Under the pieces are notes generated by a model. That model searched no databases. It saw only the letters and a program-made list of their open reading frames with translations, and had not been told where the DNA came from. A stretch of DNA of 11,349 nucleotides from positions 1 to 11,349 of the forward strand of contig JAQBWG010000032.1 in the NCBI GenBank assembly GCA_027625225.1, given 5' to 3'. The DNA is from Chloroflexota bacterium. Its GTDB lineage: Bacteria; Chloroflexota; Dehalococcoidia; Lucifugimonadales; VGZR01. The translations under genes and the position numbers were made by a program. Below, piece after piece: positions 1 through 6,763 of the stretch (positions are counted from its first letter, which is position 1; every line of letters starts with the position of its first letter).

Positions 1-202
1 TCAGGACAATACCAATTGATGGAGCTACGCGTTTCATACCAACCTCTTTGTTCGTCAAGCTGCCACGCTGACTCACGTTTAGAATGCGTTAAGCCCCTCA
101 CTGTATCCCAGCGCTGTCAATATAGTTTTGTAAATCACAATCACAGATACGCGATAGCTTCCTCTCTGACGGAGAGAAACCACGGGTTATGACGGGCGCC
201 GG

Positions 203-829
203 TTATCGTCCGAATGTAGGAGAGGAGCGTCGGTTGCCTTTGCTTTCAAAGAAGTCCATGTCTATGGCAAAGGCGGCGGCAAGGACGAGCGCCCAGAGCT
301 TGGGGTCGGTGGTGGTGGCTTCGCGCTGAACGTGGAAGGTATCGGCGTCGGTGGCCATTTCACGCAGGACGCCGCTCCATTTTTTGGTGACGCGGGCGAC
401 TTCCCTGTCGTGTTGGCTGACGATGAAGGTGTTGGGCTTCATGAGCGGACCAACGATTTCGGCTATGGGTTTGCCGGAGGGGTCGTGCACGCTGAATTTG
501 CGCTTGAGTATGGCGAAGCGCCGCTGGAGTGAGCCGAGGGGCTGGCCATGTGAGTCGGTGACGTGGAGGTGGGAGAACAGCCAAAAGAAGCCGCGCTTGG
601 CCTGCAACACGGGGGTTTTAGCGTTGTCGATGAAGTGGAAGGTGAGCGGCCGGTGGGTGGCCAGGAATTGGCGGGCGAGCCAGTTGGACTCTTCGTAGGC
701 GTAGAGCACCGGTTCGCCGGAGCCACTGCTGACGGTGTAGCGGTTGGAGGTTTCGAAGCCGGTGAAGACTTCGATGCCTTCTACTTTCTGGCGAACGATG
801 AATTCTTTATGGTCTGCAAGGGTGTCCAT
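203..829 (-). CDS. Phospholipid scramblase (PLSCR, PF03803-like) family protein, 208 aa
   Basis: Translation aligns by eye with human PLSCR1 core motifs: FTGFETSNRY vs LTGFETNNKY, KKWSGVLREMATDADTFHVQ vs KHWTGILREAFTDADNFGIQ, and C-terminal helix AAAFAIDMDFFES vs GACFLIDFMFFES. It lacks the eukaryotic Cys-rich palmitoylation motif and the Pro-rich N-terminus. RBS GGAGGTG lies 5-6 nt before the ATG at 829. Confidence 0.75.
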   Translation of the reverse strand: MDTLADHKEFIVRQKVEGIEVFTGFETSNRYTVSSGSGEPVLYAYEESNWLARQFLATHRPLTFHFIDNAKTPVLQAKRGFFWLFSHLHVTDSHGQPLGSLQRRFAILKRKFSVHDPSGKPIAEIVGPLMKPNTFIVSQHDREVARVTKKWSGVLREMATDADTFHVQREATTTDPKLWALVLAAAFAIDMDFFESKGNRRSSPTFGR

Positions 830-929: not shown

Positions 930-2561
930 TTAGCGTTCAAGCCAAGCGTTGGCATAGTACGGGAAGGCCTTCACCTCAAAGTTCTTCAGCGCCGCCGTCG
1001 CGGGGTAGATGCTGTAGAACACGCCCTCGTATACTGCGGGAACAGCCTTGAAGAACTCTAATTGAATCTCGTCCAAAAGTCGGAACTTCTCATCGTCGGT
1101 AGTCGCCTGGGCGAACTGCGAGCGCAGTTCGTGCAGCTTGTCTATCTTGGGGAACAGCGGAATCGAAGCGCCAATGGCTTCGTGTTCCAGCGGGCTTGTG
1201 CTGTTCCAGTGCACGTCCCAGCTTGTTGCGACGTTAAAGCTTTCGGGGTTGCCGAACTTGGTTACGATGGTTGCCCAGTCAAGTGCCGGCATTTCCACGT
1301 TGAAGCCTATCTGTTCCAGCTCTTGCCTGACGACGAAGCCGGTCGGCGTGATGGTGGAGTAGTCGGTGGGGTTCAACAAGATGATGGTTTCCCCAGCGTA
1401 TCCGGACGCGTCCAAAAGCTCTTTCGCCCTTACTTTGTCGTTAACGTTGTAGTATTCGTCCACGCCAGCGCTGGTTTCCCAGCGCGTGCCGCAGTAGAAG
1501 ACTGCGCCGCATAGAGTCCAGAGGTCGCTCGGGCCAAGGGAAGTCATGATGGCTTCCATGTCCAATCCGGTCTGGACTGCCAAACGAGCATTGGTGTTGT
1601 CAAAGGGTGCCTGGCCGGGGATTAGGAACACGTTGCTCCTGTGACCCGGCTTGTACAACGGCACAGTCAGGTCTGCGTTGCTGTTTAACCGCTGGAAGAA
1701 ATCGAGGCCTGCACCGTCCACGACGTCCCATTCGCCGGTCTCCAGACCAGCTATCTTGGTTTCTTCGTCGGGTATCTCAAGCCAGATAAGCTCGTCTATG
1801 TACGCGGTTACTTTTCCGGTATAGAGGCTGGACGGTTCGTCTCTGGTGGTAAAGCCCTCGTTGCGGTTGAGGACGATTCTATCGCCCTGTTCCCAGCGGA
1901 CGAACTTGTAGGGGCCGGAGCCGACCCATTCTTCGACGGCGATGGCAGAGGTTACACCTTCGTCAATCCGGCTAGGCATAATGCGCGGGCTGCCATATGG
2001 CTTGGCCAAGCTTAAGATAACCGCACCGGTGCGTTTTTTCAGGTTGATGGTGAACGAGGTGTCGCTATTCACGACGAAGGAGTCTTCGTCCATGAACTCA
2101 CCCATAAGTCCGGCGATGGAGTACCAGCCGTTTATCCAGCGGGTGTACGTGCTCTTTACGTCGCCCGCGGTAACGGGGGTGCCGTCGTGGAACTTCATAC
2201 CTTCGCGAAGGGTGAAGTTCCAGGTCATGCTGTCGCTACTCACGTTCCAGGTATCCACCATGACGGGCTGGTCTTCGGTGTTTTCATCCCAGCCAAAGAG
2301 AGTTTCGTAGATGTGGGAGCCGACTGCGGTGGTCACATACGCGCCGCCAATCATCGGGTCCAATGTTGGAATACTCGCCTGGGAAACTATCCTCAGGGTG
2401 CCCCCAAATTTGGAGCCTTCACTCGTAGGTGTGGAGCCGGTTGTTGCCGTTGCCTGAACCACCTGCGTCGAATCGGTCGCAGTAGACTCGCTACAGGCCG
2501 CGGCAGCTAATACCAAGCTAAGAATCAGGACAAGCAGCCCCATGGATACCGTACGTTTCAT
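930..2561 (-). CDS. ABC transporter substrate-binding protein, family 5 (DppA/OppA/NikA-like), probable lipoprotein, 543 aa
   Basis: N-terminal signal peptide MKRTVSMGLLVLILSLVLAAAAC with Cys23, followed by a Thr/Ser-rich linker, at a size typical of SBP family 5. RBS AAGGGGA lies upstream of the ATG at 2561. No permease or ATPase genes are adjacent, so this is an orphan SBP. Confidence 0.75.
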   Translation of the reverse strand: MKRTVSMGLLVLILSLVLAAAACSESTATDSTQVVQATATTGSTPTSEGSKFGGTLRIVSQASIPTLDPMIGGAYVTTAVGSHIYETLFGWDENTEDQPVMVDTWNVSSDSMTWNFTLREGMKFHDGTPVTAGDVKSTYTRWINGWYSIAGLMGEFMDEDSFVVNSDTSFTINLKKRTGAVILSLAKPYGSPRIMPSRIDEGVTSAIAVEEWVGSGPYKFVRWEQGDRIVLNRNEGFTTRDEPSSLYTGKVTAYIDELIWLEIPDEETKIAGLETGEWDVVDGAGLDFFQRLNSNADLTVPLYKPGHRSNVFLIPGQAPFDNTNARLAVQTGLDMEAIMTSLGPSDLWTLCGAVFYCGTRWETSAGVDEYYNVNDKVRAKELLDASGYAGETIILLNPTDYSTITPTGFVVRQELEQIGFNVEMPALDWATIVTKFGNPESFNVATSWDVHWNSTSPLEHEAIGASIPLFPKIDKLHELRSQFAQATTDDEKFRLLDEIQLEFFKAVPAVYEGVFYSIYPATAALKNFEVKAFPYYANAWLER

Positions 2562-2656
2562 TCCAATCCCCTTAAATTAAGTTCGTCAAGCTGTATAGAT
2601 TTGTTTTTCCTAACGGATCTGGGCAAGGTTCGCACTGTTATGCTATAGCTGTCAAC

Positions 2657-2676
2657 ATTGTGAAGCTAATCACAAT
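2657..2676. promoter_or_regulatory. CRP/FNR-family-type operator: ATTGTGA-agctaa-TCACAAT (TGTGA-N6-TCACA consensus)
   Basis: Perfect 7-bp inverted arms with a 6-bp spacer, directly seen in sequence. It sits in the AT-rich leader about 95-115 bp upstream of the SBP start codon. Confidence 0.5.
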
Positions 2677-2712: not shown

Positions 2713-3171
2713 CTAGGCAGTAGGAACTGTAAGGTCACCCGACTCGATGAGGTGCTTGACATTGGCAAGCCGTGACTTCTCACGTTTGGAGAAGTCCATC
2801 CGAATCATGGGGTACATGAGCCAGCCCATAATCGGCCTCGAGGTGGCGTGGATGCTCAAAGAGACACTGGTGTCGTCGCCACTGGAGTGAAATGCCCATT
2901 CGGCCTCGCCGCGCATGGCAGATGTAGTGAACTTCACTCCGAACGACTTGTTCGGATCGAGCTGAGTGGTTTCCAAGTCGATTTCGATGGTCGAGCCGGG
3001 CACTTTGAGGACTTCTTTCCATGTGGTACCGACCTTCACTGAGCCGTCGCCCGTATTTGCTATGGATACGACATCGGGGTCAGCCTTGGGAAGCCAAGTC
3101 GCCAAGTCGCTGAGAACAGCAAAGACTTCCTCAGTTGGTTCGTTTATGGTGGCTGTGGCGTTAAAACGCAT
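2713..3171 (-). CDS. SRPBCC superfamily protein (polyketide cyclase/dehydrase-like, Bet v1/START fold), 152 aa
   Basis: N-terminal INEPTEEVFAVLSDLATWLP motif and a long C-terminal helix (GWLMYPMIRMDFSKREKSRLANVKHLIE) are typical of Polyketide_cyc2-type proteins. RBS AAAGGGAG is present. It lies 40 bp downstream of the flotillin gene with no terminator between them, so co-transcription is likely. Confidence 0.65.
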   Translation of the reverse strand: MRFNATATINEPTEEVFAVLSDLATWLPKADPDVVSIANTGDGSVKVGTTWKEVLKVPGSTIEIDLETTQLDPNKSFGVKFTTSAMRGEAEWAFHSSGDDTSVSLSIHATSRPIMGWLMYPMIRMDFSKREKSRLANVKHLIESGDLTVPTA

Positions 3172-3211: not shown

Positions 3212-5140
3212 TTATTCGTCGGTAGATTTACCCTTTTTAGGTTTCCTGGCTCCGTTGCCGCCGTTCTTGTCGGTATTCTCAGGTATGTCAAGCTTAGGCC
3301 CCAGGGTAGTGGCAAGCCAGGCGTTGAACAGGCCACCGCCGGGGCCTCCGTCGCCGCCACCGCTGACCATGACGTCGGGGGTGATTTTAACTTTGCCATC
3401 GGAGACTTCTTCCAACACCTTGAGGATGGCAAGGCGTTCGGGACCGACCACCTTGGCCTGGGCGAGGTAGGCGTCAGCAGTAGCTTCACCGACCTTACGG
3501 ACGGCGTCGGCATCACCGTCGGCGCGGGTTTTGGTGGAGTCGCGTACACCTTCGGCTTCGCGGCGGGCGGACTCGGCACGGTCGGCTGCCATCTCGATGG
3601 ACAGCTTTGCAGCCACGACCTGCACCTGCTGGTCGGCGCGGGCTTTCTGTTCCTGTACGCCGATACGTTCGAGTTCGGCACGGGCTTCTTCTTTGTACTG
3701 AGTCTGCTGCTGGATGGCAATCTCTTTCTTCGTCTGGGTATCGAGCAGCGTCTGGTCAACGGCGATGTAGGCGATGAGGAGGTTTTGGGCCTCGACGAAG
3801 TAGTGGTGGAATTCGTCACGCGCCTTGGAGAGTGCCTGCTGCTGCAACTCGGAGCGTCCCTGCACGAAACCGATAGCCTTTTCCTCTCCCGCACGGTTGC
3901 GGAACGAGGAGTCTACCAGCGGGTGGACGATTTGCTCGATAAGATTTTCAACGGAGCCGAAGCGGGCGATGACGAAGGGTGCGTACTCCGGCCGGATGCG
4001 GATAATCATGCGAACGTCGACGTCGAGGTGGAAGCCGTCCCGGGAGGTTACCCGTAGTTGGGCGAATTTGAAGAACTCGGCGGCTTTTCCTTCCGCGCTG
4101 GGCTCGGGTTCGATAGGCACGGGTGACATGGCATCCATCCGCACCCTGGCGCCAGCCGCCCAGTCAATGGTGACGGCGCTGGTGGGTACGAGATAGGACG
4201 TGTAGGCGATGGGATTGAGGTTGTAGGTACCAGGCGCGACAGGGTCACGAAGGATGCCACGGCGTTCGCGGTCGGTGATGAGCAGCTTTTCGACAGCCTC
4301 ATGGATGGGTTGCCGCAGGTCTTCGGGGGTGTGCGGAATCTCGGGCGGGCCGTCGCTGATGTCAAGTTCCTGGCCGACGTTGGACCGCAGGACGGCGACA
4401 TAGCCGGGAGGAATATCGGTGATGGCGTGCTTTTCGACTTCGAACAACAAGGGGTTGATGTAGTAGTCGCCGGGCTGGATGGTGTCGAGCTGGGGACCAC
4501 GGAAGCCGCCGCTATCGATGAACGCTTGCCCATCCTGGTAAAACTTATGGTGGCGGATGCGGGCGTTAATATCGGTGGGCGCTTCGGGCGGCTTGGGAGC
4601 CACGATGAAGCCGGGGGGCAAGGGAATGCCGTCCATAGCAACGATGACGCCGAGTTTACCCGATTCGATGCTGGTGGCGGCAAACTTTTGCACGCGGAAC
4701 AGCTTGGTGTTGATTCGATAGACACCGGGTCGCAATATTTCGACCTGGGGCCCTTTCTTGCCGCCGTTCTCCAAGAAGGTTTTGCCGTCCTGATAGGAAT
4801 CACAATCCACTAAGTCACCGAGAAGGCGCCTGGTGGGCAGCGGTTCGCCGTCAACCGATTCGATAACGCCCACTTCATCAACACGTATGACCGTAATGGG
4901 CAGGCGTTCAATCTTCCAAAACAACGGGAAGCGCCAGTAGAGGCCGGGCTTCAATGTTTCGGAGAGAATGCCCACTTCCTGGTTGCGGGCGATGATGTGG
5001 CCCTGAGGAAGGGGGGTGGCGAACATTTTGCGGGTGAGAACGCCTACCTGGTCGTCGCGAACGAGCGCAAGGCCCAGGATAAGTATCGCGAGTCCTATGA
5101 CTCCAGCAATAATAGGAAGCACGATTACTAGAGCAATCAT
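3212..5140 (-). CDS. Flotillin-like SPFH/Band-7 protein (YqiK/FloT family) with N-terminal TM anchor, repeated N-terminal modules, Glu/Ala-rich coiled coil and Gly-rich C-tail, 642 aa
   Basis: N-terminal hydrophobic helix (IALVIVLPIIAGVIGLAILILGLALV). SPFH core near aa 350-400. Long EA/Q-rich coiled coil at aa 430-570. C-terminal KVKITPDVMVSGGGDGGPGGG resembles the YqiK Gly-rich tail. RBS GGAGGGG precedes the ATG at 5140. The tandem internal repeats are described in the findings. Confidence 0.8.
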   Translation of the reverse strand: MIALVIVLPIIAGVIGLAILILGLALVRDDQVGVLTRKMFATPLPQGHIIARNQEVGILSETLKPGLYWRFPLFWKIERLPITVIRVDEVGVIESVDGEPLPTRRLLGDLVDCDSYQDGKTFLENGGKKGPQVEILRPGVYRINTKLFRVQKFAATSIESGKLGVIVAMDGIPLPPGFIVAPKPPEAPTDINARIRHHKFYQDGQAFIDSGGFRGPQLDTIQPGDYYINPLLFEVEKHAITDIPPGYVAVLRSNVGQELDISDGPPEIPHTPEDLRQPIHEAVEKLLITDRERRGILRDPVAPGTYNLNPIAYTSYLVPTSAVTIDWAAGARVRMDAMSPVPIEPEPSAEGKAAEFFKFAQLRVTSRDGFHLDVDVRMIIRIRPEYAPFVIARFGSVENLIEQIVHPLVDSSFRNRAGEEKAIGFVQGRSELQQQALSKARDEFHHYFVEAQNLLIAYIAVDQTLLDTQTKKEIAIQQQTQYKEEARAELERIGVQEQKARADQQVQVVAAKLSIEMAADRAESARREAEGVRDSTKTRADGDADAVRKVGEATADAYLAQAKVVGPERLAILKVLEEVSDGKVKITPDVMVSGGGDGGPGGGLFNAWLATTLGPKLDIPENTDKNGGNGARKPKKGKSTDE

Positions 5141-6289: not shown

Positions 6290-6763
6290 ATGAAAGATAA
6301 CAACACAACAATCAATCAGGAGATGAACGGCGACGAGCTGCTCGCGACGCTGTCGGCGCTGGCAAGCGTGCACAGGCTGCGCATCGTCGCGCTGCTGACG
6401 GCGGGACGCATCCACGTAAGCCAGTTGGCAAGGGAGATGCAGATGAGCCGCCCGCTGGTACACATGCATCTGCAGCGACTTGAGGCTGCGGGGTTGGTGA
6501 AGGGCGAACTGGAGCTGTCCGAGGACGGCAAGGCGATGAAGTACTTCGAGGTGGCTCCCTTCATGTTGTCGGTCAGTCCGGCGAGCATCGTCGAGGCGAT
6601 TCAGACCCTGACGACTGAGTCGGGCGAGACAGGGGACGTAGCCCAGGTGCAACAGCGGGTCGCACAGGAGATGGAGCGGGTGGCGGGCGAGCTTTCACAG
6701 CTTCAGGAGCGGGCGGGCGCGATGAAGCGGATGTTCAAATCCCCGGATTCAAAAAAAGAGTAA
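6290..6763 (+). CDS. ArsR/SmtB-family winged-HTH transcriptional regulator with C-terminal coiled-coil extension, 157 aa (start may instead be the ATG at 6322)
   Basis: LSALASVHRLRIVALLTAGRIHVSQLAREMQMSRPLVHMHLQRLEAAGLV matches the ArsR HTH signature, including the HxHL motif. There are no metal-binding Cys residues. About 60 extra C-terminal residues are heptad-like (AQVQQRVAQEMERVAGELSQLQERAGAMKRMFKS). Confidence 0.7.
   Translation: MKDNNTTINQEMNGDELLATLSALASVHRLRIVALLTAGRIHVSQLAREMQMSRPLVHMHLQRLEAAGLVKGELELSEDGKAMKYFEVAPFMLSVSPASIVEAIQTLTTESGETGDVAQVQQRVAQEMERVAGELSQLQERAGAMKRMFKSPDSKKE

Follow-up and report, generated by a model that had tools for sequence, protein, structure and literature searches.

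A conserved dyad in fixed register with a predicted sigma-70-type promoter upstream of orphan family-5 substrate-binding protein genes of SAR202 Chloroflexota

The stretch of DNA analysed here (the window) covers positions 1 to 11,349 of contig JAQBWG010000032.1 from the Chloroflexota assembly GCA_027625225.1, and carries on its minus strand a gene for a family-5 ABC substrate-binding lipoprotein (SBP), a gene for an SRPBCC protein upstream of it and, between the two, a palindromic dyad (Table 1). No permease or ATPase gene accompanies the SBP gene anywhere in the window and it is in that sense an orphan. The best match of the SBP among solved structures is 8vdx, an unnamed SBP (E 6e-56), and its sequence is 100% identical to that of a protein with the annotation 'MAG: Chloroflexi bacterium', with relatives annotated as SAR202 cluster or Dehalococcoidia. 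SAR202 ranks among the bacterial lineages that are most abundant in the dark ocean and in deep lakes, has only recently been cultured and comprises deep-water degraders of recalcitrant organic matter. A public copy of the locus (L001) lies on scaffold MEHR18-1_SAMN03444961_METAG-scaffold_8246 (18,079 bp) of a SAR202/Chloroflexi MAG, which probably derives from a Caspian Sea SAR202 population (cf. PMC5864207). Over their overlap the window and this copy are identical except in two places, a 10-N scaffold gap and a single nucleotide polymorphism at 2674. The gap (7711-7720 of L001) is closed by CC in the window (4842-4844), where two called genes thereby become a single 642-aa SPFH/Band-7 ORF (3212..5140). 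The polymorphic site (L001 9888) falls inside the palindrome, and it is the window base that makes the palindrome perfect. Among regulator genes Pfam finds an ArsR-type HTH at 6290-6763 alone in the window, unrelated to the site, and the absence of a CRP gene from the window, as an earlier note on this DNA had it, holds for the Crp/Fnr family by Pfam.

Table 1. Features of the window, with the corresponding islands upstream of orthologues (gene sense) and the paralogue clades that carry the module
Feature	Position	Strand	Remarks
SBP gene, family-5 ABC substrate-binding lipoprotein (proposed regulated gene)	930..2561	-	543 aa; lipobox Cys23; PF00496 E 2e-54
Predicted extended -10, TGc-GAACCT	2626..2634	-	18-nt spacer from -35; from comparative alignment
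Predicted -35 hexamer, TTGACA	2650..2655	-	3 nt downstream of dyad; from comparative alignment
Predicted dyad operator	2657..2676	-	ATTGTGAagctaaTCACAAT; ATTGTGA-N6-TCACAAT; core 2659-2674
SRPBCC protein gene	2713..3171	-	152 aa; gene upstream of the site
Truncated gene start	2..37	-	ATG at 37; MKRVAPSIGIVL..., signal-peptide-like; first 12 codons; runs off contig end
-35 of second module, TTGACA	115..120	-	
Weaker operator copy, TGTGA-tttaca-AAACT	124..139	-	PWM 26.9 bits; distal half-site alone intact
13-mer CAGCTTGACGAAC	2581..2593 and 50-62	-	identical in both 5' leaders
Island, window			atTGTGAttagctTCACAatgTTGACA-N15-TGcGAACCT
Island, L002			atTGTGAagaaacACACGatgTTGACA-N14-TGcGAGACT
Island, L004			atTGTGActtattTAACCaagTTGACA-N14-TGcGAGTAT
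Island, L010			tcTGTGAtgcgaaACACAttgTTGATA
Island, L050/L053			ttTGTGAtgcgaaACACGaagTTGACA-N14-TGgGAGTAT
Island, L052/L063			layout as L050/L053, spacers differ
Paralogue clade, L012			SBP 62% identical to window SBP
Paralogue clade, L061/62/64/69			SBP 51% identical to window SBP
Paralogue clade, L083/84/108/123			SBP 46% identical to window SBP
Paralogue clade, L025			SBP 44% identical to window SBP; 2-nt gap to -35
Paralogue clade, L091			weak module

Positions 2657-2676 read ATTGTGAAGCTAATCACAAT, two perfect 7-bp arms around a 6-bp spacer, and the arms stop there, C2656 and T2677 being unpaired. In gene sense the dyad is aT-TGTGA-ttagct-TCACA-At, with its promoter-distal half-site at 2670-2674 and its promoter-proximal half-site at 2659-2663. 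The earlier note had singled out this palindrome as perfect, had put the chance of such a core at about 0.02 and had placed it about 105 bp upstream of the SBP ATG. The first is confirmed, the second has the right order of magnitude (base composition gives about 0.007 perfect cores per window, and the perfect TGTGA-N6-TCACA, present once in the window, occurs in 0 of 200 dinucleotide-preserving shuffles) and the third is exact, the site centre at 2666.5 lying 105.5 nt from the start at 2561. At two mismatches or fewer the window holds 3 sites against 3.8 expected and is without general enrichment. A location in an AT-rich leader had also been proposed, of which the AT-richness stands (the intergenic DNA around the site has a GC content of about 48-49%, and the rest about 58%) and the leader does not, the site lying upstream of the predicted −35 and so outside the predicted transcribed leader. 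Position 2674 is A in the window and G in the public contig, whose site, TGTGAagctaaTCACG, matches the 16-bp CRP/GlxR-type dyad TGTGA-N6-TCACA at 9 of 10 positions as compared with 10 of 10 in the window; because of this G the perfection of the palindrome is specific to the allele or to the assembly. The base concerned is the outermost of the core, a position that is Y/R-degenerate among related sites.

Orthologues of the SBP (63-73% amino acid identity) sit in quite different gene neighbourhoods, always as orphans with no ABC permease or ATPase nearby, and their upstream DNA is unalignable save for one island, TTGTGA..CAC..GTTGACA..GGTGsGAG (Table 1). The island consensus, T-YGTGA-N6-nCACR-A-nG-TTGACA-N17/18-(TGn)-nAnnnT, can be taken as a dyad site joined at a fixed distance to a sigma-70-type promoter, in itself an ordinary kind of operator-promoter arrangement. 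Conservation in orthologous upstream regions, the want of which the earlier note would have taken as refuting the site, is thus seen, with the dyad and the −35 and −10 elements the sole conserved parts. One orthologue (L005/L056) has lost the motif and keeps a decayed form of it in unchanged register, TTCTGA-N6-ACGGT-att-TGGACA.

The spacing of 3 nt between operator and −35 is invariant among the related promoters. Downstream of TTGACA, at 17 nt (18 in the window), come nAnnnT hexamers, frequently with TG in front, the orthologue −10 being TGs-GAGTAT at 17 nt from the −35. The −35 has the consensus sequence and does not vary; the −10 boxes retain A2 and T6 yet match at 2-4 of 6 positions only. 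A generic scan for sigma-70 promoters made no call in 2400-2900, which is put down to the weakness of the window −10 (GAACCT, 2/6). When the −10 is taken as −12 to −7, the −35 hexamer occupies −35 to −30 and the dyad about −54 to −39, so that the dyad is predicted to be centred at −46.5 (−47.5 in the window); the transcription start would then fall near window position 2619 and the leader would be about 58 nt long. Promoters of SBP paralogues that have no dyad show the same TTGACA-N17-TAnnnT layout, and because these keep their −35 and −10 the dyad is regarded as a regulatory addition rather than as a general component of SAR202 promoters.

Scans guided by the orthologue alignment added 119 loci (L007-L125; 125 in total), all from SAR202/Dehalococcoidia MAGs or metagenome contigs, and 101 non-redundant loci amounting to 573 kb of SAR202 DNA were then covered by pattern and PWM scans. 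Together these give about 21 strong modules in the 101 loci, almost all in sense orientation before SBP_bac_5 genes, in a sample that is biased in that every locus was obtained via an SBP gene, so that the motif need not be confined to SBP genes. Close kinship among the carriers (L050-L053 with L063; L061-L069; L083-L123) reduces the 21 to about nine independent lineages. With start codons corrected, the modules lie roughly 85-145 nt from the SBP ATG. Shuffled sequences gave 2-11 PWM matches, at a lower threshold. A register test independent of the trained PWM took the 551 occurrences of TTGAC[AG] in the 573 kb and found GTGA-N7-CAC at exactly 3 nt upstream in 13 cases, which represent 11 distinct 16-mers, at 2 nt in one case, and at none of the other 14 offsets in the range 0 to 15. 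An enrichment of the CRP motif, which the earlier note had proposed to look for genome-wide, is not seen overall in this DNA, TGTGA-N6-TCACA at one mismatch or fewer being seen 9 times in the 573 kb against about 11 expected by composition. Since the strict consensus is not enriched and the 3-nt register is, the signal is the dyad in its promoter register and not the CRP consensus as such. Besides the orthologues, at least five SBP paralogue clades are preceded by the fixed-register module (Table 1), a pattern of conservation and shared targets of the sort sought for a Crp/Fnr-type site. Among complete SAR202/Dehalococcoidia chromosomes the module is present in OY760908.2, OZ242262.1, OZ244723.1 and OZ220697.1.

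Twelve lineage representatives yield a-T-Y-GTGA-N7-CAC-r-A-n-G-TTGACA. GTGA is kept in 12 of 12, C, A and C of the second half in 10, 11 and 12, the flanking T in 10 and the flanking A in 11; the first core base is T in 8 sites and C in 4, and where TCACA has its T the sites show no conserved base. Strictness is thus found in the distal half-site, the proximal one being looser, and poor in L004 and in the second module of the window. Spacers are unconserved across the 12 sites, and that they have diverged with the dyad kept points to a dyad bound by protein rather than to a repeated element. A MITE carrying a promoter was considered separately and rejected: the clades share the dyad and the promoter hexamers alone, with spacers and flanks that differ.

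The second module lies at the contig end, downstream of a scramblase-family gene (203..829). On the minus strand 139..124 reads TGTGAtttacaAAACT, followed by ata-TTGACA, and so the 3-nt register is kept. The truncated gene that follows is probably a paralogous SBP, given the leader blocks that it has in common with the SBP leader, which include the 13-mer of Table 1 and a further block, TTGG-ATGAAACG. In both leaders the 13-mer stands 12-20 nt upstream of the start codon, and the orthologues of other genomes do not show it; it could serve as a second promoter or in the control of translation, or be the trace of a recent duplication or gene conversion.

Overall the palindrome is very probably a real transcription factor site that controls the orphan SBP gene, and a functional operator with a small SBP regulon is well supported by the comparison of sequences. 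The reading that we regard as likely is of an operator-promoter module under a dimeric helix-turn-helix regulator, with the orphan SBP gene as one member of a lineage-wide SBP regulon. The module would be compact: T-YGTGA-N6-nCACR-A, 3 bp, TTGACA, a spacer of 17-18 bp and an extended, weak −10 (TGn-nAnnnT). A regulator encoded elsewhere in the genome would bind the dyad near −46.5/−47.5 as a dimer, with the proximal edge of the dyad in contact with the −35 hexamer, and SBP transcription would be controlled thereby; the same module before at least five other SBP_bac_5 clades and before the truncated gene of the window would extend that control into a regulon. The combination of an unconserved spacer, strict half-sites and an invariant −35 spacing is the signature of a dimeric regulator held at a fixed position relative to RNA polymerase. 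Activation by a regulator that contacts sigma region 4 or the alpha-CTD of RNA polymerase is favoured, because the −35 spacing is invariant, the −10 boxes are weak and the site abuts the −35 without covering it. Alternatively, a repressor at the site could mask the upstream edge of the −35 or block alpha-CTD contacts, since a consensus −35 is as compatible with repression as with activation. Because the proximal half-site is poorly conserved in some members (the second window module and L004), the site might instead be read by a monomer or an asymmetric binder, or be contacted directly by RNA polymerase. The neighbours of the motif-bearing SBP genes include no obvious regulator.

The element would act in the manner of a class-II-type activator site or of an operator of the CRP/Rex motif class. 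As for which regulator would read the dyad, a perfect CRP consensus does not by itself identify it, because the Rex operator has the same core. The Rex consensus, given as the 18-bp palindrome TTGTGAAnnnnTTCACAA by Ravcheev 2012 as quoted in PMC6391272, is matched by the window site at 13 of 14 positions and the CRP 20-mer at 12 of 14; for the related sites the figures are 9-12 of 14 and 8-11 of 14. Thus of the CRP-type regulatory site put forward in the earlier note the conserved transcription factor site is very probable, and the CRP identity is not established, the fit to Rex being equal or better and the centre being predicted at −46.5/−47.5. A Crp/Fnr-type regulator is tentatively ranked the most likely, at somewhat less than an even chance, with a Rex-type regulator a close second; the remainder goes to HTH families other than these two.

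In E. coli the canonical positions of CRP and FNR sites are −41.5 (class II) and −61.5 (class I, which also takes sites farther upstream in steps of about one helical turn), repression going with overlap of the core promoter, and regulators of the CRP family often activate uptake genes. That a cAMP-responsive CRP/GlxR regulator binds the dyad, so that the SBP gene comes under carbon-catabolite control at a class I or class II promoter, is possible, though on the unlikely side. The site resembles those of CRP, GlxR and Bacillus Fnr in its half-sites, its canonical 6-bp spacer and its 16-bp dyad form, the window core being complete and GTG-N8-CAC being the core conserved among relatives. Like CRP and GlxR sites it lies upstream of genes for nutrient-uptake proteins and near the −35 as activator sites do, and a fixed register beside the −35 would suit an activator. 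However the predicted centre is roughly half a helical turn off both canonical positions, and it falls beside an intact consensus −35 whereas CRP at −41.5 lies over a poor one. The conserved flanks, T-TGTGA and TCACA-A, are the reverse of the E. coli A-TGTGA and TCACA-T, matches to the 20-mer reach 8-12 of 14, the end bases of the dyad are Y/R, and the distal half-site alone is strict, all of which are unlike CRP sites. Phmmer searches with E. coli CRP and FNR had no match among the 1851 ORFs of the 573 kb of SAR202 DNA, a weak negative from a small genome fraction. In the literature searched, no paper was found that ties SAR202 to Crp or deals with SAR202 transcriptional regulation, nor anything relevant on Chloroflexi Crp with TGTGA sites, and the supplements of SAR202 genome papers had no Crp/K10914/COG0664 entries.

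That the site is a Rex operator, through which the NADH/NAD+-sensing repressor Rex would couple SBP expression to redox state, is doubtful. It has in its favour the TGTGA-N6-TCACA geometry, the conserved outer T and A, which are Rex-like, match counts generally above those for CRP, and the Rex orthologues in Chloroflexi that PMC6682613 mentions in citing Ravcheev 2012. The inner A7 and T12 typical of Rex operators are not conserved here (A 4/12, T 4/12), and known Rex regulons, according to PMC6391272, are those of energy and NAD(H)-linked metabolism and not SBPs; by contrast all targets seen here, in a sample of SBP loci, are SBP_bac_5 genes. Rex is moreover a repressor with operators that usually overlap the core promoter, whereas the present site is kept in strict register upstream of the −35 with no such overlap. 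A phmmer search with B. subtilis Rex gave no match among the same 1851 ORFs of 573 kb, again a small genome fraction. Were the regulator nevertheless Rex-like, the NADH/NAD+ state of the cell would have a direct hold on solute capture, and the content of the regulon and its activating geometry would be of a kind not described for Rex.

More doubtful still, when taken as a specific proposal, is a lineage-specific global SAR202 regulator that would read T-YGTGA-N6-CACR-A at an unusual and fixed place near −46.5, directly beside a consensus −35, and co-ordinate the orphan family-5 SBP paralogues. In geometry alone the arrangement has a counterpart in LuxR/TraR-type boxes, which are 18 bp long, class-II-like and centred near −42 to −45: in both a dyad of 16-18 bp has a promoter-proximal edge that touches or just overlaps the −35, with a spacing invariant across the regulon. 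In contrast the half-sites are unrelated, and there is no sign of a LuxR-type regulator here.

It seems improbable that the block is intrinsic to the promoter, that is an UP-element-like or extended −35 sequence contacted by RNA polymerase and inherited through SBP duplication. A single register with the −35 throughout and a proximal half that is degenerate in some members would fit such an element, as would the further leader blocks shared by both window modules; all carriers are paralogues, and the sharing could in part stem from common descent. Yet the block contains G and C and has dyad symmetry (GTG-N8-CAC), in which it differs from A/T-rich UP elements, SBP paralogue promoters of the same −35/−10 layout do without it, and the dyad is kept with spacers and flanks fully diverged across paralogues 44-73% identical to the window SBP. 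Weakest of all, and very improbable, is a chance palindrome without function or an RNA hairpin or terminator of the upstream SRPBCC gene, for which the single site in the window, its position 37 nt downstream of the SRPBCC stop (2713), and a perfect form that hangs on one SNP would speak, and which, with no perfect core among the shuffles, is largely refuted by the conservation in orthologues and paralogues. The SRPBCC terminator or hairpin was also rejected on its fold, which is no better than that of shuffles (z = −0.15) with no terminator-like site, and Rfam had no match in the window.

With the dimeric helix-turn-helix regulator at an operator-promoter module as the preferred reading, what is new here would be a first candidate cis-regulatory motif and candidate regulon for SAR202, linking, as judged from sequence, a subset of the orphan family-5 SBP paralogues. 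A shared cis-element of this kind defines a candidate regulon, predicts co-expression of the SBP paralogues concerned and provides a bait sequence for the regulator.

Several further observations were made along the 101 loci. Family-5 SBP genes (L002-L125) are almost always orphan, an ABC ATPase-like ORF occurring within 2.5 kb in 3 of the 101 loci, and ten or more SBP paralogues occur in single SAR202 genomes (e.g. OZ242262.1, OZ220697.1). Between relA and hisS on a SAR202 contig, at L005 336-351, TGTGATATCCTTCACT has one mismatch to the CRP core; it is probably due to chance, because it is without the flanking T and without a following TTGACA. Another SBP clade (L035, L036, L047, L093) has the block TACAT-N6-GCAAG-ggg-TTGACA in the same register, about 20-45 nt upstream of TTGACA, with the spacer to the −10 conserved as well, and this block may reflect close kinship only or be the site of a different regulator. 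At L123 2045-2092 the dyad centres a 46-bp near-perfect palindrome, CCAAGAGCGTCAACaTTGTGAgagattCCACAAcGTTGACGCTCTTGG, in which TTGACG boxes flank the dyad symmetrically on both strands; there is no divergent gene, and the sister locus L083 is without the outer symmetry. At L123 2240-2450, and at its equivalent in L083, the N-terminal linker of one SBP paralogue clade is long, repetitive, acidic and Glu/Val-rich (VEVEKVVEVV...), and arises from tandem GAGGTnGAG repeats.
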